7,504 nucleotides of DNA from Parvularculaceae bacterium (GCA_026989615.1 JALSJA010000320.1:1-7504), one strand, 5' to 3'; shown: positions 2-7,502, numbered from the stretch's first letter. Notes: generated by a model not told the origin, from the sequence alone. Translations and numbers: made by a program.

Positions 2-124
2 GATCTCGAAGGCGAAACCGGCATTAAGCGCCACCATATTGCCGAAGCCATTTCCTATCGGCGGCGCGAAGACAATAGCGAACAGATCGCCGTAAAAGCA
101 CAAAGCCCTCATTCTTCCCCCTAG
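2..124 (+). CDS. comM: C-terminal 40 codons of a ComM/YifB-family Mg-chelatase-like AAA+ protein (5' part lies left of the window)
   Basis: Frame 2 is open from the window edge and reads DLEGETGIKRHHIAEAISYRRREDNSEQIAVKAQSPHSSP*. The HIAEA(I/L)SYR block matches the conserved C-terminal helix of YifB/ComM proteins; this is recognition from memory, not a search. The ORF is too short for the ORF track. Stop TAG 122-124 lies inside the CTAG terminus of repeat copy 1. Confidence 0.6.
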   Translation, partial: DLEGETGIKRHHIAEAISYRRREDNSEQIAVKAQSPHSSP

Positions 125-225
125 AGCACTTCCCGAAAAGTGGGAACCGGTTTTCGGATAAGAAGTGCTCACAAACAAAGATTTAGAGCCCGGTTTTGAT
201 TCCATCAAAACCGAAAAGGCTCTAG
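121..225 (+). repeat. Modular two-hairpin intergenic repeat, copy 1 (short form, 105 nt)
   Basis: Inverted termini are CTAGAGC (121-127) and GCTCTAG (219-225). Hairpin A (124-170) is GAGCACTTC+CCGAAAA / loop GTGGGAACCGG / TTTTCGG + ATAA bulge + GAAGTGCTC. An A-rich spacer follows (171-184). Hairpin B (185-223) is AGAGCC-CGGTTTTGAT-TCC-ATCAAAACCG-AAAA-GGCTCT. This copy lacks the ~24-nt apical segment TCCTTCGACAGGCTCAGGATGAGG present in the other five copies. Confidence 0.9.
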
Positions 226-340
226 CCCCCCAATCCCTCTTTTCTTTAAAAAACAATCCTTCCCCGCAACCAATAATTAACCAGCTTCCCTAACCAAAAA
301 TCAAAACCCTCATGCCAATATGCAGACATTCTAGTTGTGT

Positions 341-2269
341 ATGGGGTTGTGGGTTGTGAGCCGAACAGATAGTCAAAATTTTTTACATGTCTTATCCGAG
401 GCAGCCATATTAACCGATGCGCGCGGACTCGTGCGCTATGTTAACCCTACCTATTGCCGCATCTTTCATGCGCCGGCCGAGGAATGGCAACAGCGTCAGG
501 CTTTTTTTGGCGAGGTTGAAACCGAACAAAGCGACAAATCGCATTTTACAAGCTTTGTGAAATCGCAACATGGCGATGGCGCAAAAACATATCTGGACTG
601 GCAAGCCTCATGGATGCCCGATGGCGGCGCTCTTTATCTCGGGCGCGATGTCACCGTCAATCGCAAACAGGACGAAGCCCTGCGCGAAATGGCCGCCACT
701 GCCGAAGAAGCCAGCCTGTCGAAAATGCGCTTCCTCGCCACCATGTCCCATGAAATGCGCACACCCTTGAACGGCATTCTCGGCATGACCGGCCTGTTGC
801 TCGATTCAGATCTTGATGCCAGCCAGCGCACCCATGCCGAAGCGGTCCATGATTCCGGCACCGCCCTTTTGGCCCTGATCAATGACATTCTCGACTATTC
901 CAAAATCGAAGCCGGCAAGCTTGATCTTGAAGAAACCGCTTTCGACCCGCAATCACTGGTGCAAAGCGTTTGCGAGCTGCTCTCTCCACGGGCGGTTCAC
1001 AAAGATCTGGAAATCACTTCCTATGTCGATCCGTCGGTCCCGGCGCGCCTGCTCGGTGATGAAGCGCGCCTGCGGCAAATCCTGCTGAACCTTGCGGGCA
1101 ATGGCGTCAAATTTACAGAAAGCGGCGGGGTTTCCGTCACCGTCTCCGCCGAGCCCGCCAAAACCGCCGGTCAGGTCCTTGCCAGATTTGAAGTCCGCGA
1201 TACCGGTATTGGCATTCCCGATGACGCCCAGCGCCGGATTTTTGAAGAATTTGCGCAAGCGGATTCCAGCCATGCCAGAAAATTTGAAGGCACCGGTCTT
1301 GGCCTGTCCATCGCCCAACATATTGTCGAAGCCATGGGCGGTGAAATCAAGGTTGAAAGTGTGGAAGGCGAAGGGTCCTGTTTTTCTTTCCGGGTTCCCT
1401 TGAACACCATGACTTCGCGCCATGATGATTCAACCCCGCGGGAAATCAACCAGACCGTTATCGCGCTGGTGGGTTCAAGCGTCTTGCGTGAATCCCTGGA
1501 GCGCCAATTAACCGCGGCCAATGTGCGCAAGGTTGAAATTACCGATAACGCAGAAACGGCCATGCGCTTTTTGAAGCGCCATAGCGGGGCTACTTTTTTA
1601 TGTGATCTTGCCTTTGCAGCCCAATTCGGAACCCGTCTCGCACCGCAGGCCGCCAATGCCATTGTCCTTTTGTCTCCGGTTGCCAGAGGCCGCCTCGAAG
1701 CATTTCGCCGGGCCGGTTTCCACGGCTATCTGATTAAACCTATCCGCCAATCAAGTCTGGTTGAGCGCATTACCAACCGCTCCATGCCCAATCGCAATGT
1801 CCAGCGCCTCGACAGCCTCACCAATAAACCGGCACCGGGTCCGCGCAAATTGCGCATCCTGCTGGCCGAAGACAATCAAATCAATGCGGTGCTGGCCACC
1901 GCTATTGTCAAGCGCGCCGGCCATCACATCGATGTGGCAGGCAATGGCAAGGAGGCTGTCGAGAATATCGCCAATGCCCCTTATGATGTTATCTTGATGG
2001 ATATGCACATGCCGGAAATGGATGGCCTTGATGCCACCCGCAAAATTCGCTCCATGGGCGGCGCCGCCAGCGAAACACCGATTATCGCACTGACCGCCAA
2101 TGCCATGCGCAGCGACCGCGAAAACTGCATGAATGCGGGGATGGATGATTTCATCACCAAACCCTTTGAACCGGGTGACCTTTTGGCGCTGATCCACCGC
2201 TGGGCTGACGGCCGTGAGGGGGCCGAGGCCAGTGAGGCGGTGGATCTCGCCCAAGAGGTCAATCGCTGA
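341..2269 (+). CDS. Soluble hybrid sensor histidine kinase: PAS-like / HisKA / HATPase_c / degenerate receiver / canonical receiver
   Basis: The long ORF is 335..2269 in the track. TTG335 directly follows an in-frame TAG, so I chose ATG341; there is no clear SD, so the start is uncertain by about 20 nt. Residue numbering below follows the track ORF. Motifs read directly: PAS-like N-terminus (aa ~12-110, NFLHVLSEAAILTDARGLVRYVNPTYCRIF); H-box MSHEMRTPLNGILG (His139, nt 749-751); N-box LLNLAGNGVKFT; G1 DTGIGI; F-box FEEFAQAD; G2 GTGLGLSI. A second receiver-like fold spans aa ~374-478 and a canonical receiver spans aa ~506-622 (AEDN, LMD556MHMP at nt 2000-2002, ALTA, ITKP). There is no hydrophobic TM segment and no HPt domain. 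Confidence 0.95.
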   Translation: MGLWVVSRTDSQNFLHVLSEAAILTDARGLVRYVNPTYCRIFHAPAEEWQQRQAFFGEVETEQSDKSHFTSFVKSQHGDGAKTYLDWQASWMPDGGALYLGRDVTVNRKQDEALREMAATAEEASLSKMRFLATMSHEMRTPLNGILGMTGLLLDSDLDASQRTHAEAVHDSGTALLALINDILDYSKIEAGKLDLEETAFDPQSLVQSVCELLSPRAVHKDLEITSYVDPSVPARLLGDEARLRQILLNLAGNGVKFTESGGVSVTVSAEPAKTAGQVLARFEVRDTGIGIPDDAQRRIFEEFAQADSSHARKFEGTGLGLSIAQHIVEAMGGEIKVESVEGEGSCFSFRVPLNTMTSRHDDSTPREINQTVIALVGSSVLRESLERQLTAANVRKVEITDNAETAMRFLKRHSGATFLCDLAFAAQFGTRLAPQAANAIVLLSPVARGRLEAFRRAGFHGYLIKPIRQSSLVERITNRSMPNRNVQRLDSLTNKPAPGPRKLRILLAEDNQINAVLATAIVKRAGHHIDVAGNGKEAVENIANAPYDVILMDMHMPEMDGLDATRKIRSMGGAASETPIIALTANAMRSDRENCMNAGMDDFITKPFEPGDLLALIHRWADGREGAEASEAVDLAQEVNR

Positions 2270-2280
2270 CCTCCCAAAAT

Positions 2281-2409
2281 CTAGAACAGTTCTGCGAAAA
2301 GTGGACCCTTCGACAAGCCCAGGATGAGGCCGGTTTTCGGATAAGAAGTGCTCAAAAACAAAAACTCAAAGCCCGGTTTTGATTGGCATCAAACGAAAAT
2401 AGGCTCTAA
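2281..2409 (+). repeat. Modular two-hairpin intergenic repeat, copy 2 (long form, most diverged)
   Basis: The sequence CTAGAACAGTTCTGCGAAAAGTGGACCCTTCGACAAGCCCAGGATGAGGCCGGTTTTCGGATAAGAAGTGCTC-AAAAACAAAAACTC-AAAGCCCGGTTTTGATTGGCATCAAACGAAAATAGGCTCTAA aligns along its full length to copies 3, 5 and 6. The left arm of hairpin A carries 2 mismatches (GAACAGTTCT versus GAGCACTTCT). The copy starts 11 nt after the kinase stop codon. Confidence 0.85.
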
Positions 2410-2462
2410 AATTTTTGCGGCCTTTCATCTGCCACAAATTACCCTAGGGTATCTGTCAGCCC

Positions 2463-2485
2463 CGCCCCAATGGGGCGCGATTTTT
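2463..2485 (+). terminator. Candidate intrinsic terminator or leader-attenuator hairpin between the kinase gene and ampG
   Basis: CGCCCC (2463-2468), loop AAT, GGGGCG (2472-2477) form a perfect 6-bp GC stem. It is followed by CGA and TTTTT (2481-2485). The stem is short with a 3-nt loop, and it lies only 9 nt upstream of the ampG SD (GGAG 2494-2497), so its role is uncertain. Confidence 0.35.
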
Positions 2486-2504
2486 CGCGTGACGGAGAAA
2501 ATTG

Positions 2505-4205
2505 ATGACAGCCCCCAGCCCAACCGGTAAAGCCGCACCAACACAACCCCGCAAGGCCTTGCTGCCAAAAATCGTCGCCATGTTTCTGCTCGGTTTTGCT
2601 TCGGGGCTTCCTTATGCAGCCCTTATCGGCACACTCAATGCCTGGCTTGCCGCCGCTGGCATCAAAACCGCGACCATTGGCGTTTTAAGCTGGATTGGCC
2701 TTGCCTATGCTTTTAAGTTTTTATGGTCGCCCTTATTTGGGGTGTTCATGCCGCCCATGTTCAAACCCGGCGGCAAGATTGGCCGTTGGCGCGCCTGGAT
2801 ATTGGCTGCGCAAGGCGTCATTGTCGGCGCGCTTTTCCTTATCACCCGCACCGACCCGGCCAATTCTATCGGCTGGCTCGCTTTGATGGCGTTTATCGCC
2901 TCGCTGGCCTCGGCCTCGCAAGATGTGGTTATTGATGCCTGGCGCATAAAAATCGCCGAAACCTCCCAAGAGCTGGACCGGCTTTCAACCATGTATCAAT
3001 TTGGCTACCGGGTCTCGGCCTTTTTTGCCGGCTTTGCGGCCCTGCTTGTGGCCGGGCGTGTCGGCTGGGAGATTACCTATACAGCCATCAGTATACTGAT
3101 GTTTGTCTCTTTCCTTTCCACCTTCCTCATGCCCGACGCACCGGAAAGCGATACCGGCCGGGTTGGCCGCATATTGCGCCTTGGCTCGCATCTGTCGGCA
3201 GAGCGTAGAAACCGGCTCTTCTATCCTGTCATGATTGCCTGGGCCCTTGCCGGCACCGCCATCATTACCTTCATGGTCGCTTATTTGGGCATGGAAAACC
3301 CGCCCTCCATCCGCACCTTCACAACTTTTGGCGGCCCGCTCATTATCATCGCCACTGTTATTTTCCCGGCGGTGGTTGCCGCCATGGTCTTGCGCGACAA
3401 AACCCTGCTGGAGCAAAAATCCTCCGGCATTCCTGTTCAAACATGGAGCGACCATCTCTATATCGCCATTTTGGAACCCATGATCGACCTTGTGGGTCGC
3501 TTGCGCTGGGCTGCTTTGCTGGTGCTCATCATTGTTTTGTTTTACCGCTATACCGATGCGGTTTGGGGCTCTTTTGCCTATCCCTTTTATATGGGACTCG
3601 ACACTTCCATTGGCGCGCAGGGCTTTACCTATGACGAGGTCGCTGTTGCCTCAAAACTGTTCGGGGTCGGCATGACGATTGTCGGCATTGCCTCTGCCGG
3701 TTTTTTCATGGCCGCCTTTGGGCGCATGCCCTGCATGCTGGCCGGGGCCATTCTCGCCGCCCTGACCAATCTTTTATTTGCCGACCTTGCCAATGGCGGC
3801 GCCACCATGGATGCCATCACCCATGCCATAGGCTTTCCCTATCTTTACGAACCGCTCAATGTTTTCATCAACTGGACCGGCCTTGACGCCACCATGAATG
3901 ACCGCCTCGCCCGATTGATGCTGGCCATTGCCGGGGAAAATCTGGTTGGCGGCTTTGCCGGGGTAATCTTCGTCGCCTTTCTGTCCTCGATAGTGAACAA
4001 GGAATATGCCGCCGTGCAATATGCCCTCTTGCTGTCCATGACCATGCTGATTGGCAATCTCGGCAAACCATTTCTCGGCGAACTCATCGACCAGCGTGGC
4101 TTTGCCTGGGTCTTCGTTCTGACCGCTCTATTGGGCCTAATCGCGGTTTTTGCCTCCATCGCCGAATGGATCCGCGAAGCCAAAAACAAAAAAACCAGCG
4201 CCTAG
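2505..4205 (+). CDS. ampG: AmpG-family (PAT family) MFS permease, probable anhydromuropeptide importer
   Basis: The track ORF is 2502..4205. I prefer ATG2505 because GGAG (2494-2497) sits 7 nt upstream. AmpG signature blocks are read directly: LLGFASGLPYA, AYAFKFLWSPLFG, SASQDVVIDAW, FGYR. The second half also aligns by eye to E. coli AmpG as I remember it: LFYRYTDA, ENLVGGFAGVIFVAFLSS, QYALLLS. The protein has many hydrophobic spans. Stop TAG 4203-4205 lies within the CTAG start of repeat copy 3. Confidence 0.9.
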   Translation: MTAPSPTGKAAPTQPRKALLPKIVAMFLLGFASGLPYAALIGTLNAWLAAAGIKTATIGVLSWIGLAYAFKFLWSPLFGVFMPPMFKPGGKIGRWRAWILAAQGVIVGALFLITRTDPANSIGWLALMAFIASLASASQDVVIDAWRIKIAETSQELDRLSTMYQFGYRVSAFFAGFAALLVAGRVGWEITYTAISILMFVSFLSTFLMPDAPESDTGRVGRILRLGSHLSAERRNRLFYPVMIAWALAGTAIITFMVAYLGMENPPSIRTFTTFGGPLIIIATVIFPAVVAAMVLRDKTLLEQKSSGIPVQTWSDHLYIAILEPMIDLVGRLRWAALLVLIIVLFYRYTDAVWGSFAYPFYMGLDTSIGAQGFTYDEVAVASKLFGVGMTIVGIASAGFFMAAFGRMPCMLAGAILAALTNLLFADLANGGATMDAITHAIGFPYLYEPLNVFINWTGLDATMNDRLARLMLAIAGENLVGGFAGVIFVAFLSSIVNKEYAAVQYALLLSMTMLIGNLGKPFLGELIDQRGFAWVFVLTALLGLIAVFASIAEWIREAKNKKTSA

Positions 4206-4330
4206 CGCGTTTCCAGGATAAGCGGCTCCTTCGACAGGCTCAGGATGAGGCCGGTTTTCGGATAAGAAGTGCTCAAAAACAAAGACTTAGAGCCCGGTTT
4301 TGATCGGCATCAAAACCGAAAAGGCTCTAA
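4202..4330 (+). repeat. Modular two-hairpin intergenic repeat, copy 3 (long form with a chimeric left arm)
   Basis: The sequence is CTAGCGCGTTTCCAGGATAAGCGGCTCCTTCGACAGGCTCAGGATGAGGCCGGTTTTCGGATAAGAAGTGCTC-AAAAACAAAGACT-TAGAGCCCGGTTTTGATCGGCATCAAAACCGAAAAGGCTCTAA. From CCTTCGACAGG onward it is near-identical to copies 4-6. The left arm is the GCGTTTCCAGGATAAG type otherwise seen only in the extra hairpin of copy 4. This copy is the entire spacer between the convergent ampG and lipoprotein genes. Confidence 0.9.
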
Positions 4331-4331
4331 A

Positions 4332-4742
4332 TCACCCCTGCGTCTGCAAACATTGATCGAGGTCGGGCACCGGATCGCCTTGGCGCGATGGGCCGAGCCT
4401 GATGGTCGCGACGATCTCTTCGCCTTCTTGATAGCGGGTCACCGCCCAGATACGGCAATCGCCCATATCAAAACGCAAGAAATTTCCGCCCCCCTCCCCA
4501 TTGCCGCCTTCAGAGCGGGTCAGCGCCGGAAGCCCGAGCAGACCCTCAAGGCGCTGGCGTGATTGTCCGCGATAATCCTCAAGCCGGATGGTCGGCGCTT
4601 CCAGAACCGGGCCAGCCCTCCCGACCGCCGGAACGGCCTGCCCATCCCCGTTTTTCGCGGGCAGGTCCTGAACACTGGCACAAGCCCCCAGCCCCACACC
4701 GATAATCATCAATAATTGCGTGCTCTTTGCCCGACCTGCCAT
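4332..4742 (-). CDS. Small lipoprotein of unknown function (136 aa)
   Basis: ATG is at 4740-4742 (minus), preceded by GAGGA (complement of 4750-4754) with a 7-nt spacer. The N-terminus MAGRAKSTQLLMIIGVGLGAC has a basic n-region, a hydrophobic core and the lipobox L-G-A-C (Cys21). Codon style matches the neighbouring genes. I recognised no domain. Stop TGA (4332-4334) lies 1 nt from the end of repeat copy 3. Confidence 0.75.
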   Translation of the reverse strand: MAGRAKSTQLLMIIGVGLGACASVQDLPAKNGDGQAVPAVGRAGPVLEAPTIRLEDYRGQSRQRLEGLLGLPALTRSEGGNGEGGGNFLRFDMGDCRIWAVTRYQEGEEIVATIRLGPSRQGDPVPDLDQCLQTQG

Positions 4743-4869
4743 CGCTTTATCCTCGTTTGCCCAAACCGAAACGCTTGTATCTTGTGCCTAAACCGCATAG
4801 TAGAGTTTGGCTTTGGCAGGGCCAACCAAATTCATCCTGCTGCCTCTATTATTTTTTCAAGGAGCCTCC

Positions 4870-5880
4870 ATGTCCGCGACCCCTGCGAAATATGATGTTA
4901 CCGGTATCGGTAACGCCATTGTTGATGTTCTTGCCAATACCGATCAGGACTTCCCCGACACCCATAACATCCCCCGGGGCGGCATGCGCCTTATCGATCA
5001 AGACGATGCCCGCACTATTTTAGAGGCGATGAAGCAGACAACCATGATATCCGGCGGCTCGGCTGCCAATTCCATCGCCGCCCTTGCTTCCCTTGAAGGG
5101 CGCGGCGGCTTTATCGGCAAGGTGGCCGGCGACGCCCTTGGCGATGTGTTCCGCAATTCCCTGCAGGAAATGGGCGTTCACTTCCCCACAAACCCCTTGC
5201 GCGATGGCACCGAAACGGGCCGCTGCCTCGTTGCGGTCACCCCCGATGCCGAGCGCTCCATGGCTACTTTTATCGGTGCCGCCGAACATGTCAGCGTCAG
5301 CGATGTGGATAGCGATCTTATCGCCGATAGCGCGGTCACCTATTTTGAAGGCTATCTTTTCGAACAGGAAAAACCCCGGGCCGCTTTTGTAAAGGCCTGC
5401 GAAATTGCCAAACAGGCCGGCCGCAAAACCGCCATCACCCTGTCCGATCGCGATCTGGCCGTGCGCCAGCGCAGCCATCTGCTCGCCTTTATCAGCGCCC
5501 ACACAGATATTGTTTTTGCCAATGAGGGTGAAGCCATGGCACTGATGAACACGGAAAATTTTGACGATGCCCTGCGCGATATTGGCGCGCTTGCCCCTTA
5601 TGTCATTGTCACCCGTTCCGGGGACGGCTCCTTGATTATTGACCCGGAAATGTCCGTACACGAAGTCGCTGCCATCGCACCGGAAATACTCGCCGATACA
5701 ACCGGTGCCGGGGACGCTTATGCGGGCGGGTTTTTGTTTGGCCTGTCGCGGGATATGGCCCCGGAACAATGCGCCATCATTGGCGGCATTTGCGCGGCGG
5801 AAGTTATTTCCCATATCGGCCCGAGACCGGAGCAAAGCCTCAAACAATTGGTCGCGGCCGCCGGTCTCATCGAAGCTTAG
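4870..5880 (+). CDS. PfkB-family carbohydrate/nucleoside kinase, adenosine-kinase-like (336 aa)
   Basis: The track ORF begins at 4807, but AAGGAG (4859-4864) lies 5 nt before ATG4870. Motifs read directly: N-terminal GIGNAIVDV, the SGGSAANS GG motif, NEGEA, and the C-terminal PfkB signature DTTGAGDAYAGGF (nt 5695-5733). Size and layout match bacterial adenosine-kinase-like PfkB proteins. Substrate cannot be fixed from sequence alone. Confidence 0.92.
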   Translation: MSATPAKYDVTGIGNAIVDVLANTDQDFPDTHNIPRGGMRLIDQDDARTILEAMKQTTMISGGSAANSIAALASLEGRGGFIGKVAGDALGDVFRNSLQEMGVHFPTNPLRDGTETGRCLVAVTPDAERSMATFIGAAEHVSVSDVDSDLIADSAVTYFEGYLFEQEKPRAAFVKACEIAKQAGRKTAITLSDRDLAVRQRSHLLAFISAHTDIVFANEGEAMALMNTENFDDALRDIGALAPYVIVTRSGDGSLIIDPEMSVHEVAAIAPEILADTTGAGDAYAGGFLFGLSRDMAPEQCAIIGGICAAEVISHIGPRPEQSLKQLVAAAGLIEA

Positions 5881-6232
5881 GCGGCAAATTCACCGCCGCC
5901 ATATCGACAGGATTGCCATTCCGGGCCCGCAAAGGGTTATCCGCTTCACCGGCCATGCGTTGCAAGGCGATGAGTTCGGCCGCAAGCCGGTCAAGAGAAA
6001 CACCGCTCATCGACAGCAAATCCAGCAGCCTATAAAGCAATTGCGCCCCGTCACGGGCGCATGCCCCGTCTTTTGCCGCCCCTTGGGCAACCAAAACCGA
6101 AAACCCGGCTGCCGCACTGGCAAAATCCGTCGCCGCATTAGGCGAGACATTTTTATCGCCATCAGATTGTTCAAACAAATTCTGGCAAAGGCTATTTAGC
6201 GCTTCCGACAAATCATCTTCATACCGAACCAT
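5867..6232 (-). CDS. Acidic hypothetical protein (121 aa; 123 aa if the first ATG is used)
   Basis: The track ORF is 5867..6238. GGTGAGGA (complement of 6239-6246) abuts the first ATG (6236-6238) with zero spacer. It is 6 nt from the second ATG (6230-6232), so I prefer the second. Codon usage (GAT, GAA, TTT, AAT, GCC/GCG, CTT/TTG) matches the confident genes. I recognised no domain. The 3' end overlaps the pfkB-family gene by 14 nt, convergently. Confidence 0.6.
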   Translation of the reverse strand: MVRYEDDLSEALNSLCQNLFEQSDGDKNVSPNAATDFASAAAGFSVLVAQGAAKDGACARDGAQLLYRLLDLLSMSGVSLDRLAAELIALQRMAGEADNPLRARNGNPVDMAAVNLPPKLR

Positions 6233-6250
6233 AATCATTCCTCACCTTGG

Positions 6251-6437
6251 GCACTTCTGCGAAAAGCGGGTCCTTCGACAGGCTCAGGATGAGGCCGGTT
6301 TTCGGATAAGAAGCGCTCAACAACAAAGACTTAGAGCGTTTCCAGGATAAGTGGACACCGGTTATCCGTCCGGAAACGCGTCAAACTAAAGACTGAGAGC
6401 CCGGTTTTGATTCCATCAAAACGAAAATAGGCTCTAG
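6251..6437 (+). repeat. Modular intergenic repeat, copy 4 (composite: hairpin A + spacer + extra hairpin A' + spacer + hairpin B)
   Basis: Hairpin A spans 6251-6318; its left CTAGA terminus is missing, and 63 nt (6251-6313) are identical to copy 5. Spacer 1 follows, then TTAGAGC (6331-6337). The extra hairpin A' (6336-6379) is GCGTTTCC-A-GGATAA / loop GTGGACACCGG / TTATCC-GTCC-GGAAACGC. A second spacer, GTCAAACTAAAGAC, follows. Hairpin B spans 6396-6435 and the terminal CTAG is at 6434-6437. GCTCTAGAGC (6431-6440) is a perfect 10-bp palindrome. Confidence 0.9.
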
Positions 6438-6609
6438 AGCAAGCAAGATTACAGGCCATATCCTGATATTGCCCTAAAATATCCCGCCATAGGCCACAGC
6501 AAGCCAAAAACCCCTTTGCCATTGAGCATTACCGGCAAGCCTCATTGTTTTAAGGGATTATTTGATAGGCAAAATATTTTTGAACCCCGGCGCGAACAGC
6601 ATCACGGAT

Positions 6610-6738
6610 ATAGAGCACTTCTGCGAAAAGCGGGTCCTTCGACAGGCTCAGGATGAGGCCGGTTTTCGGATAAGAAGTGCCGCAAACAAAGGCTTATAGC
6701 CCGGTTTTTATTGGTATCAAAACGAAAAAAGGCTCTAA
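6610..6738 (+). repeat. Modular two-hairpin intergenic repeat, copy 5 (long form)
   Basis: The sequence is ATAGAGCACTTCTGCGAAAAGCGGGTCCTTCGACAGGCTCAGGATGAGGCCGGTTTTCGGATAAGAAGTGCCG-CAAACAAAGGCT-TATAGCCCGGTTTTTATTGGTATCAAAACGAAAAAAGGCTCTAA. The left terminus is ATAG instead of CTAG. There are uncompensated substitutions in the hairpin A right arm (GTGCCG) and in hairpin B (TTTAT). Confidence 0.9.
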
Positions 6739-6770
6739 GGTTTGAGCCCTTTGCAACGATCCCCCGAATA

Positions 6771-6800
6771 AAAAGCGCGGCCCCAAAGACCGCGCTTTTC
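6771..6800 (-). terminator. Rho-independent terminator of the small secreted-protein gene (structurally bidirectional)
   Basis: Read on the minus strand it is GAAAAGCGCGG-TCTTTGGGG-CCGCGCTTTTTATT: a 7-bp GC-rich stem (AGCGCGG/CCGCGCT) followed immediately by TTTTTATT. It lies 26 nt past the stop of CDS 6826..7113. The A-run on one side and T-run on the other also give a hairpin plus TTTT on the plus strand. Confidence 0.7.
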
Positions 6801-6825
6801 ATAATTCTGAAACACAGGTCAGACC

Positions 6826-7113
6826 CTAATGCTCATGGTCCCCATGACCGTCCCCGGAGCACTCCATAACGGCGCCTTGGGCATCATCATTCAGCAATTC
6901 GACATCTTCCGGCTTGGTTACCTTGTTGAACTCTTCGAGCAGATCCGGATCTTCGCTCACCTTCCCGGCAAGACAGGAGCAATCAAGCTCGGTACGGTCG
7001 AAATCTTCCACATATTGATTGCAATTGGCCTCAAACTCTTCATTGGCCGAAGCGCTAACTGTAATCCCGAGGCCAAGCGCGGCCATACCAGCAATAATCA
7101 AGCTCTTTTTCAT
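6826..7113 (-). CDS. Small secreted, highly acidic 4-Cys protein with a His-rich C-terminal tail (95-aa precursor, ~72-aa mature)
   Basis: ATG is at 7111-7113 (minus), preceded by GGAGGA (complement of 7123-7128) with a 9-nt spacer. The Sec signal peptide is MKKSLIIAGMAALGLGITVSASA, with an ASA|NE cleavage site. By my count the mature part has about 22 D/E of 72 residues. Cysteines are at precursor positions 31, 45, 47 and 85. The C-terminus is CSGDGHGDHEH. The gene has its own terminator at 6771-6800. I recognised no family. Confidence 0.8.
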   Translation of the reverse strand: MKKSLIIAGMAALGLGITVSASANEEFEANCNQYVEDFDRTELDCSCLAGKVSEDPDLLEEFNKVTKPEDVELLNDDAQGAVMECSGDGHGDHEH

Positions 7114-7207
7114 TTTGAGATTTCCTCCATAAATTAAGCCCCCTTACCCGACCTTTTTGGCCATACCGGCAAGTCATACTGGAATTGCCAATGATGATAA
7201 ACCCCCT

Positions 7208-7335
7208 TTAGAGCCTGTTCGGTTTTGATACCAATCAAAACCGGGCTCTAAGCCTTTGTTTTGAGCACTTCTTGTCCGAAAACCGGCCTCATCCTGAGCC
7301 TGTCGAAGGACCCGCTTTTCGCAGAAGTGCTCTAG
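7208..7335 (-). repeat. Modular two-hairpin intergenic repeat, copy 6 (long form, inverted orientation)
   Basis: The reverse complement reads CTAGAGCACTTCTGCGAAAAGCGGGTCCTTCGACAGGCTCAGGATGAGGCCGGTTTTCGGACAAGAAGTGCTC-AAAACAAAGGCT-TAGAGCCCGGTTTTGATTGGTATCAAAACCGAACAGGCTCTAA. The first ~60 nt match copy 5 apart from the first base, and 56 nt match copies 4 and 5 exactly. This is the only copy on the minus strand. Confidence 0.9.
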
Positions 7336-7502
7336 CACCCCGTCCGGCCATCAAGGGCCAAAGGATTGGTGCCCATGCGCAACGGGAATTTTCTTGCCTT
7401 TTTCGCAATAATGGCTTTTGTGACCCCAAGAACCAGACAAAATCCATCCGGATAATCCGGGCCAGAAAAACCGGGCAGGAGCGCCCATACAAGCACAGAT
7501 TT
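7332..7502 (-). CDS. Possible 3' end (56 codons) of an unidentified minus-strand gene running off the right edge
   Basis: One minus-strand frame, open from the edge, reads KSVLVWALLPGFSGPDYPDGFCLVLGVTKAIIAKKARKFPLRMGTNPLALDGRTGC*. Its codons (CTT, GAT, GCC, ATT, AAA, GGC, CCG) fit the local usage better than the other two minus frames, which are also largely open here. Stop TAG (complement of 7332-7334) lies in the CTAG terminus of repeat copy 6. I recognised no family, so confidence is low. Confidence 0.3.
   Translation of the reverse strand, partial: KSVLVWALLPGFSGPDYPDGFCLVLGVTKAIIAKKARKFPLRMGTNPLALDGRTGC

Follow-up and report, generated by a model that had tools for sequence, protein, structure and literature searches.

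Intergenic two-hairpin repeats of a Parvularcula-like bacterium match the Bru-RS family and are probably mobile DNA inserting at TA

The DNA analysed here, called the window, is a stretch of 7,504 nt from a Parvularculaceae bacterium (GCA_026989615.1 JALSJA010000320.1:1-7504), in which six copies of a short palindromic repeat with two hairpin arms lie between the genes. The window is a haplotype of the contig JBPMMA010000109.1, which belongs to a metagenome-assembled genome (MAG; GCA_054026315.1). The repeats are located at 121-225 (copy 1), 2281-2409 (copy 2), 4202-4330 (copy 3), 6246-6437 (copy 4) and 6610-6738 (copy 5) on the plus strand and at 7208-7335 (copy 6) on the minus strand. A search of the window for direct and inverted repeats yielded inter-copy matches of 75-130 nt with 70-95% identity; all six copies can be aligned, and copies 5 and 6 form an inverted repeat of 113 nt at 95% identity. 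An initial annotation, made from the sequence alone, had reported these six copies, and all of them are present, with the homology of copy 4 beginning at 6246 and not at 6251. It was also right that their orientation is biased 5:1, that 4743-4869 is the sole intergenic gap without a copy and that no transposase is encoded within the window. The repeats had been estimated to occupy roughly half of the non-coding bases and in fact make up 804 of 1688 nt (47.6%, with the non-coding total computed from the gene calls of the source contig). All copies are intergenic according to the window gene calls, and the same is found in related contigs.

The basic unit is a short form of 105 nt, represented by copy 1. 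In it, an A-rich linker (ACAAACAAAG) separates two independent imperfect palindromes, arm A on the left and arm B on the right, and a TA stands at either end (TA...TA; YTAGAGC...GCTCTAR). Arm A has an outer stem GAGCACTTC/GAAGTGCTC, an inner stem CCGAAAA/TTTTCGG with an ATAA bulge, and a small apical stem. Arm B has the arrangement GAGCC-CGGTTTTGAT-loop-ATCAAAACCG-bulge-GGCTC. A second arm type, A′ (GAGCGTTTCCAGGATAAGTGGACACCGGTTATCCGTCCGGAAACGC), is found in copy 4.

Copy 1 is the canonical short form with arm A at 124-170, the linker at 171-183 and arm B at 184-224, the loop of which contains GATTC (198-202); the upstream ComM-like gene terminates in its first TAG (122-124). Copy 2, which starts 11 nt past the stop codon of a histidine kinase gene, is a degraded long form carrying a nested unit of 22 nt at 2306-2327. 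Copy 3 is a chimera of an A′ left arm, the 22-nt unit (4227-4248), an A right arm, the linker and an intact arm B; its TAG at 4203-4205 is the stop codon of AmpG, and it occupies the entire gap as far as the stop codon of the convergent gene (4332-4334). Copy 4 is a composite in the order A, linker, A′, linker, B: a long-form arm A with the 22-nt unit at 6271-6292, the first linker, arm A′ (approximately 6334-6382), the second linker and arm B (approximately 6394-6437) with GATTC at 6409-6413. Copy 5 is a long form with a degraded arm B (22-nt unit at 6635-6656) and copy 6 an intact long form (22-nt unit at 7289-7310, minus strand).

Single-strand folding confirmed the proposed two-hairpin fold for copy 1 (z = -8.9), copy 6 (z = -8.8) and the second half of copy 4 (z = -5.2), each of which is predicted to form two hairpins. 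Copy 3 (z = -4.0) keeps arm B and part of arm A. Copies 2 and 5, which the initial annotation had already regarded as damaged, are indeed degraded, with z values of -0.7 and -2.9. The hairpins are kept among the 72 full-length copies found in metagenome contigs of the same lineage, as 65 of them have a z below -3 and 63 fold into exactly two hairpins. The loop of arm B contains GANTC, the CcrM site, in 57 of these 72 copies and in two of the six window copies (copies 1 and 4, at 198 and 6409); the loops of the other four are TGGC, CGGC or TGGT. GANTC is strongly under-represented in the window, with nine sites compared to approximately 29 expected from base composition, and two of the nine are located exactly at arm B hairpin tips (198 and 6409).

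One part of the fold has to be read differently. The apical GTCCT/AGGAT stem that had been assigned to arm A is actually the nested 22-nt unit (TCCTTCGACAGGCTCAGGATGA), whose place at the tip of this arm is constant. In the lineage, the apex of arm A is 8 nt long in 72 copies, 9 nt in 14, 30 nt in 30 and 44 nt in 10, so that the long form differs from the short form by an insert of exactly 22 or 36 nt at a single place. The 36-nt insert, found in the 10 copies with the longest apex, is a relative of the 22-nt unit, and altogether 31% of the lineage copies carry a nested unit of either length. The 22-nt unit is also found outside the repeats. In lineage contigs it occurs solo, and the 22-mer has matches in plasmids of Methylobacterium, Sphingobium, Novosphingobium, Rhizobium, Nitratireductor, Microvirga, Phyllobacterium, Comamonas and a cyanobacterium, among which those of Novosphingobium and Comamonas contain it as inverted pairs. 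It was also recorded at 409-430 of L121 and at approximately 151-172 of L125. An IS3 transposase gene of Methylobacterium nodulans contains a precise 22-nt insertion of the unit, as judged against intact copies of the gene in M. radiotolerans and M. extorquens, and an IS630-like gene of Microvirga ossetica likewise carries a precise 22-nt insertion; the two transposase genes are unrelated to each other. No description of the unit was found in the searchable literature, and a text search for the arm A core and the 22-nt sequences returned nothing relevant. We considered the unit as a CGTC-tagged REP (Di Nocera, 2013) and rejected this, as the stem, loop and tail rules do not fit.

Whereas the initial annotation had regarded the element as unrecognised and without a named family, it matches the Bru-RS family of Brucella. 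The members of this family in B. melitensis have been published and equated with the Bru-RS1/2 repeats of Halling and Bricker, 1994 (Petrillo et al., 2008; PMC2267715). They are built from TAGAGC, arm A or A′, CAAAACAAAG, TAGAGC, arm B and GCTCTAG (PMC2267715). We generated one nhmmer profile from 31 full-length B. melitensis members and a separate one from 12 arm A members. Positions 1-105 of the full-length profile match the window at 122-224 end to end (E = 9.5e-14), and further matches of this profile were found at 6335-6425 (6.5e-11), 4204-4329 (8e-7) and 7334-7209 (5.6e-6). The arm A profile matches all six copies; thus, every copy is matched by a Bru-RS profile, with E values between 1e-15 and 1e-2. 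The kinship in principle to REP/BIME, Bru-RS and RIME elements that had been suggested does apply, as the element is a modular intergenic repeat of this kind with two hairpins. A match to an already described family of known function had been named as grounds for refutation; this applies by half, since the family has been described whereas no function of it is known.

The elements resemble Bru-RS in their length (103-107 bp), their palindromic nature, their intergenic location, their multiple copies and the order of their parts. Counterparts of arm A as well as of arm A′ of the window exist in Brucella, and a second type of arm B in related contigs, B2, has the Brucella arm B core CGATTC..GTTTTAA..CGG. 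They differ from Bru-RS in their host, a Parvularcula-like MAG, in the sequence of the outer stem, in the nested unit and in the arm B stem of the window, type B1 (CCGGTTTTGAT/ATCAAAACCG), for which a search in other taxa gave one weak match only. The insertion sequence (IS) IS711 has been reported to duplicate TA at YTAR inside Bru-RS1 (PMC3163539). Neither IS711 nor another IS was found in the sequences examined, but the elements do carry YTAR at both ends. Judged by the profile matches and the shared order of parts, the window repeats are a lineage-specific subfamily of the Bru-RS family.

A second group of repeats, the CcrM-associated intergenic repeats CIR1-4 (CIR), is similar by its description. 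According to the review by Delihas, 2008 (PMC2229807), which summarises Chen and Shapiro, 2003, CIR repeats occur in Caulobacter and Brucella and are conserved among alphaproteobacteria. They are approximately 110 bp long, with two inverted-repeat arms, a linker, GANTC at one terminal loop and 5′TA3′ termini (PMC2229807). They lack long terminal repeats and are exclusively intergenic; target-site duplication is listed there as unknown and their mobility is unexplained (PMC2229807). Compared by description only and not by sequence, the present elements agree in length, in the two arms with a linker (63 of the 72 full copies have exactly two hairpin domains) and in the TA termini, with YTAG at the 5′ end of 65 and CTAR at the 3′ end of 66 of these copies. 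GANTC in the loop is kept in most lineage copies and in two of the six window copies. From this agreement in anatomy we conclude that the repeats probably also belong with the CIR repeats.

The Rfam search that the initial annotation had proposed gave only partial matches below threshold, to two Brucella small RNA (sRNA) models, RF02599 (CI408; 28.1 bits compared to a gathering threshold of 398) and RF02600 (CI27; 25.5 bits compared to 59.8). The matches cover only the repeat inside these models, a hairpin with the sequence GAGCnCnUCCCGAAAAGnGnGAAnCnGUUUUCGGAUAAGAnGnGC; apart from them, the permissive search yielded only chance matches to rimP and MicX. That the window repeats are sRNA genes was rejected, as the matches are confined to the repeat and close relatives have gained or lost copies.

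Other families of intergenic repeats were compared by their published features. RIME1/2 and Sm-repeats are likewise intergenic mosaics of palindromic modules in Rhizobiales, and the arm A consensus is common in plasmids of Rhizobium and Sinorhizobium, the hosts of these repeats; we claim no identity with them, as the comparison is by description. Correia/NEMIS, RUP and ERIC elements are 100-150 bp long, have TA at both ends, duplicate TA, are non-autonomous and adjacent to genes, and are co-transcribed (PMC2229807). They fold end to end through long terminal inverted repeats, whereas the present element has two separate arms, a terminal inverted repeat of 4-10 bp and no sequence similarity to them. 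With arm B1, only GAGC is common to both ends of the element; with arm B2, approximately 9 of 10 bases are. Of the features that define miniature inverted-repeat transposable elements, target-site duplication was found at the sites of copies 1 and 3 (see below), and terminal inverted repeats in common with a parent IS were not found.

By means of a lineage-specific 21-mer, we collected at least 119 non-redundant metagenome contigs (658 kb, 51.9% GC). These contain at least 204 element loci, 70 of them in the length class of 100-109 nt. Half of the 72 full copies (36) are plain A-type short forms of 100-109 nt, and the full copies share the ends YTAG...CTAR with random flanks beyond. The region around the window holds seven copies in 16 kb, the seventh being located at 15954-16063 in haplotype L001 and at 1-106 in contig L255. 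The contig JBPMMA010000109.1 ends inside this seventh copy, and the assembly appears to break there.

The closest named relatives of the adenosine kinase encoded in the window are those of Parvularcula, Aquisalinus and Hyphococcus (54-60% identity), which places the host in a deep Parvularcula-like lineage outside the Hyphomicrobiales. The family as a whole is found mostly inside that order. A 16-mer (CGGTTTTCGGATAAGA) was searched in contigs of one genome per species and hit more than 117 loci; approximately 100 are genuine elements, nearly all from Hyphomicrobiales. Carriers are Brucella/Ochrobactrum, Mesorhizobium, Rhizobium, Nitrobacter, Bradyrhizobium, Xanthobacteraceae, Pseudolabrys, Rhodobium and Afifellaceae, and one locus (L053) is located in a Parvularculaceae MAG. 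The arm A consensus was found in 356 plasmid records, 310 of them from Rhizobium, 14 from Sinorhizobium and 13 from Bradyrhizobium. In other taxa many copies consist of arm A alone, and some have other apical inserts. The 30-nt core of arm A (CCCGAAAAGTGGGAACCGGTTTTCGGATAAGA) is nearly invariant in Hyphomicrobiales and in the Parvularcula-like lineage, although this is partly forced by a search pattern that fixed 16 of the 30 positions. The outer stem of arm A covaries: in 96 sequences 93.4% of the cells are paired, none of 500 shuffles reached the observed score, and the pair 12-59 is CG in 40, AU in 28, GC in 5 and UA in 4 sequences. One locus, L015 (JAPZAO010000125.1), is binned as an archaeon under the label Candidatus Methanoperedens; it carries a genuine alphaproteobacterial arm A close to those of L111 and L077 and is probably a mis-binned contig.

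Whether the elements move can be judged at sites where they are missing. In L129 and L257, two contigs of sister genomes with an identity of 96% at the amino-acid and 88% at the nucleotide level, the gene order is kept, and the 12.3 kb of syntenic DNA contain no element, so that all seven local copies are absent. The same holds for the more distant Parvularcula-like contig L131, in which the order is kept and gaps of 140, 89 and 3 bp contain no element. At the site of copy 1, L257 reads ...GCCCGCC-TA-ACTCCCC, where TAA is the stop codon of the ComM-like gene, and the filled site in the window reads ...TTCCCCC-TA-[GAGCAC...GGCTC-TA]-GCCCCCC. At the site of copy 3, L257 reads ...AACAGC-TA-GGGATCA, with TAG as the AmpG stop codon and the single TA only 3 nt from the convergent stop codon, and the filled site reads ...GCGCC-TA-[GCGCG...GGCTC-TA]-AATCA. 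In both cases the empty site has a single TA where the filled site has two, one on either side of the element, which shows a TA target-site duplication; for CIR repeats this feature is listed as unknown. The site of copy 6 (CCCCTTTTTGCACCC in L129, CCCCCTT-TA[GAGCC...GCTC]TA-GCACCCC when filled) is compatible with such a duplication. Copy 2 is absent from L257 and the whole of copy 4 is absent from the orthologous site in L129; here the flanks have diverged or lack TA, and the sites are uninformative or show no simple TA duplication. Among the metagenome contigs no empty alleles were found.

One alternative is that the repeats are ordinary decaying duplications or chance palindromes without mobility of their own. 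The degraded copies 2 and 5 would fit with this, but at least 204 copies with sharp common ends in unrelated flanks, presence and absence in sister genomes exactly at the element boundaries and the conservation of the family across orders refute it, and we give it practically no credence.

The target TA was part of a stop codon in the cases of copies 1 and 3, where a TAG is re-formed with the first G of the element. This arrangement is frequent: 23 of 55 upstream genes in the same orientation use the TAG of the element as their stop codon, and approximately 11 of 47 convergent genes terminate with the TAG at the element's end on the opposite strand. In the source region three of four such genes end in the element TAG, namely those for the ComM-like protein, AmpG and HslU (the last at 15955-15957 of L001). 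The standard Hyphomicrobiales arm A contains a stop codon in each forward frame: TAG, TGA in GCATGATC and TAA in GGATAAGA.

Taken together, we consider it probable that the repeats are non-autonomous mobile DNA of the Bru-RS/CIR family that inserts at TA and is moved in trans. Recombination speaks for this as well, since copies exchange parts with one another: haplotype L002 has an A′-type right arm at the locus of copy 3 and the window an A-type one. The arm B loop of copy 5 is TTATTGGTATC in the window and L002 and TGATTCAATC in L001, and 41 of the 83 variant columns in the alignment of the three haplotypes (window, L001 and L002) fall inside elements, which make up 11% of the bases. A TA-duplicating transposase encoded elsewhere would act on them; candidates are enzymes of the IS630/Tc1-like type or of the IS5/IS427 group, which would recognise the ends or the conserved core. 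Insertions would persist at harmless places such as stop codons and gene ends. After insertion the copies may decay, recombine and gain nested units, and effects of the hairpins on transcripts, like the CcrM site at the tip of arm B, would be side effects or secondary uses and not the reason for which the element exists.

Several observations weigh against this interpretation. The TA duplication is documented by two clean site pairs and an ambiguous one, and the sites of copies 2 and 4 are uninformative or do not fit a simple one. Neither a transposase nor a parent IS with the same ends was found in approximately 690 kb, which include the window, the surrounding 16 kb and the 658 kb of related contigs. 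No two of the 119 lineage contigs have an open reading frame (ORF) of at least 200 amino acids in common, no paired half-elements 0.7-2.5 kb apart were found, and the 14 ORFs that lie between copies are housekeeping genes, for example those for Rho, NuoF, glutaredoxin and GST. The terminal inverted repeat is short, GAGC and a few bases. Furthermore, the elements tend to be co-directed with tandem genes, at a ratio of 24:5 in Hyphomicrobiales and 19:9 in the lineage (based on rough gene calls), and this bias is not predicted by a purely selfish model at the DNA level; it requires selection or a strand-specific mechanism. Finally, a host function could be the reason why the core and GANTC in the arm B tip are so deeply conserved. 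The unexplained orientation bias, the conserved core and GANTC at the tip keep two further explanations alive, movement as single-stranded DNA by an HUH enzyme and a function for the host.

The first of these is suggested by the modular build of the elements. The lineage contigs contain approximately 14 solo copies of arm B as well as arrays of arm A with a period of 56 nt, and A or A′ is freely combined with B1 or with B2, the type close to that of Brucella; further A′/A chimeras were seen. The tandem arrays (L153, 15-147; L143, 21-99; L207, 781-855) cluster like BIMEs, and in the window only copy 4 shows array-like clustering. In having short hairpin modules in mosaics, hundreds of copies and positions at gene 3′ ends, the elements are similar to REP/BIME/REPIN. 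They could be of this type, with a RAYT-like (Y1 HUH) enzyme, and not a DDE transposase, transposing them in the form of single-stranded hairpins; the terminal TA would then belong to the recognition site and be no duplication; REPIN-like inverted pairs of the 22-nt unit elsewhere and an orientation bias that could reflect a strand-specific mechanism would agree with that. However, the known REP superfamilies are defined by a GTAG or CGTC tag, whereas the termini here are TAGAGC; none of the copies was seen to have a RAYT gene beside it; and two empty sites have exactly one TA compared to two when filled, which HUH transposition does not yield. We therefore regard such a mechanism as improbable.

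The second explanation takes the repeat as a regulatory module that serves the host and is co-transcribed with the upstream gene; its hairpins would keep out 3′ exonucleases, provide a site for processing or, where the stem abuts the stop codon, slow the termination of translation; the opposite strand would act as a terminator and GANTC at the tip of arm B would link the element to CcrM methylation. The orientation bias with transcription in tandem contexts fits this. So does the sequence of the arm A core, which is kept across orders. GANTC is common in arm B of the lineage and is also present in Brucella arm B. A U-rich tract (CUUUGUUUU) comes after arm B on the reverse strand, a terminator-like arrangement, and Brucella sRNA families of Rfam contain the repeat, so that it is transcribed in this host. 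Liang, Rudd and Deutscher (Mol Cell 2015) reportedly showed that in E. coli REPs no more than 15 nt from a stop codon reduce translation, and this was counted in favour of such a module.

Other data do not agree with a host module. None of the seven copies is present at these genes in the sister genomes, the hairpins of copies 2 and 5 are lost, only two of the six window copies have GANTC, and the copies adjoin unrelated housekeeping genes. The mismatches in the outer stem of arm A are balanced (20 G.T and 27 A.C), and thus there is no hint of selection acting on one of the RNA strands. Altogether a host-serving module seems unlikely, although less so than movement by a RAYT-like enzyme, and mobile DNA of the Bru-RS/CIR family remains our preferred interpretation.

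Three further features of the locus lie outside the repeats. The adenosine kinase gene and a convergent gene for 121 amino acids overlap by 14 nt at their 3′ ends (5867-5880), hence there is no space for an element between them. Just 3′ of a minus-strand gene for 95 amino acids, at 6771-6790 and outside copy 5, a GC-rich hairpin is located between A and T runs (AAAAGCGCGGCCCCAAAGACCGCGCTTTT) and has the appearance of an intrinsic terminator for both directions. Near position 7456 of the window, haplotype L001 has an extra 28 nt (CCGGGCCAAAAAAACCGCGCCAGAAAAA; approximately 12587-12614 of L001) beside the similar sequence CCGGGCCAGAAAAACCGG; this looks like a tandem duplication that is unrelated to the repeat family.

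For annotation, these repeats should be masked as Bru-RS/CIR-type elements and not be treated as sRNAs, hypothetical ORFs or a new class of elements. They also break assemblies, as seen for the source contig that ends inside a copy. The kind of element was known already, and the new points leave it unchanged. Compared to the literature consulted, it is new that the family extends past the Hyphomicrobiales into a Parvularcula-like lineage and that it was active recently there, with seven local gains since a split at approximately 12% nucleotide divergence. The TA duplication seen at empty sites, often at stop codons, and the nested 22-nt unit are new as well. Two ideas that follow from them are tentative, and we hold them to be rather doubtful at present: the 22-nt unit may itself be mobile, as an extremely small unit that has so far gone undescribed, and the Bru-RS/CIR family may target the TA of stop codons, restoring TAG. 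If this is true, targeting of the stop-codon TA would answer how CIR elements move.

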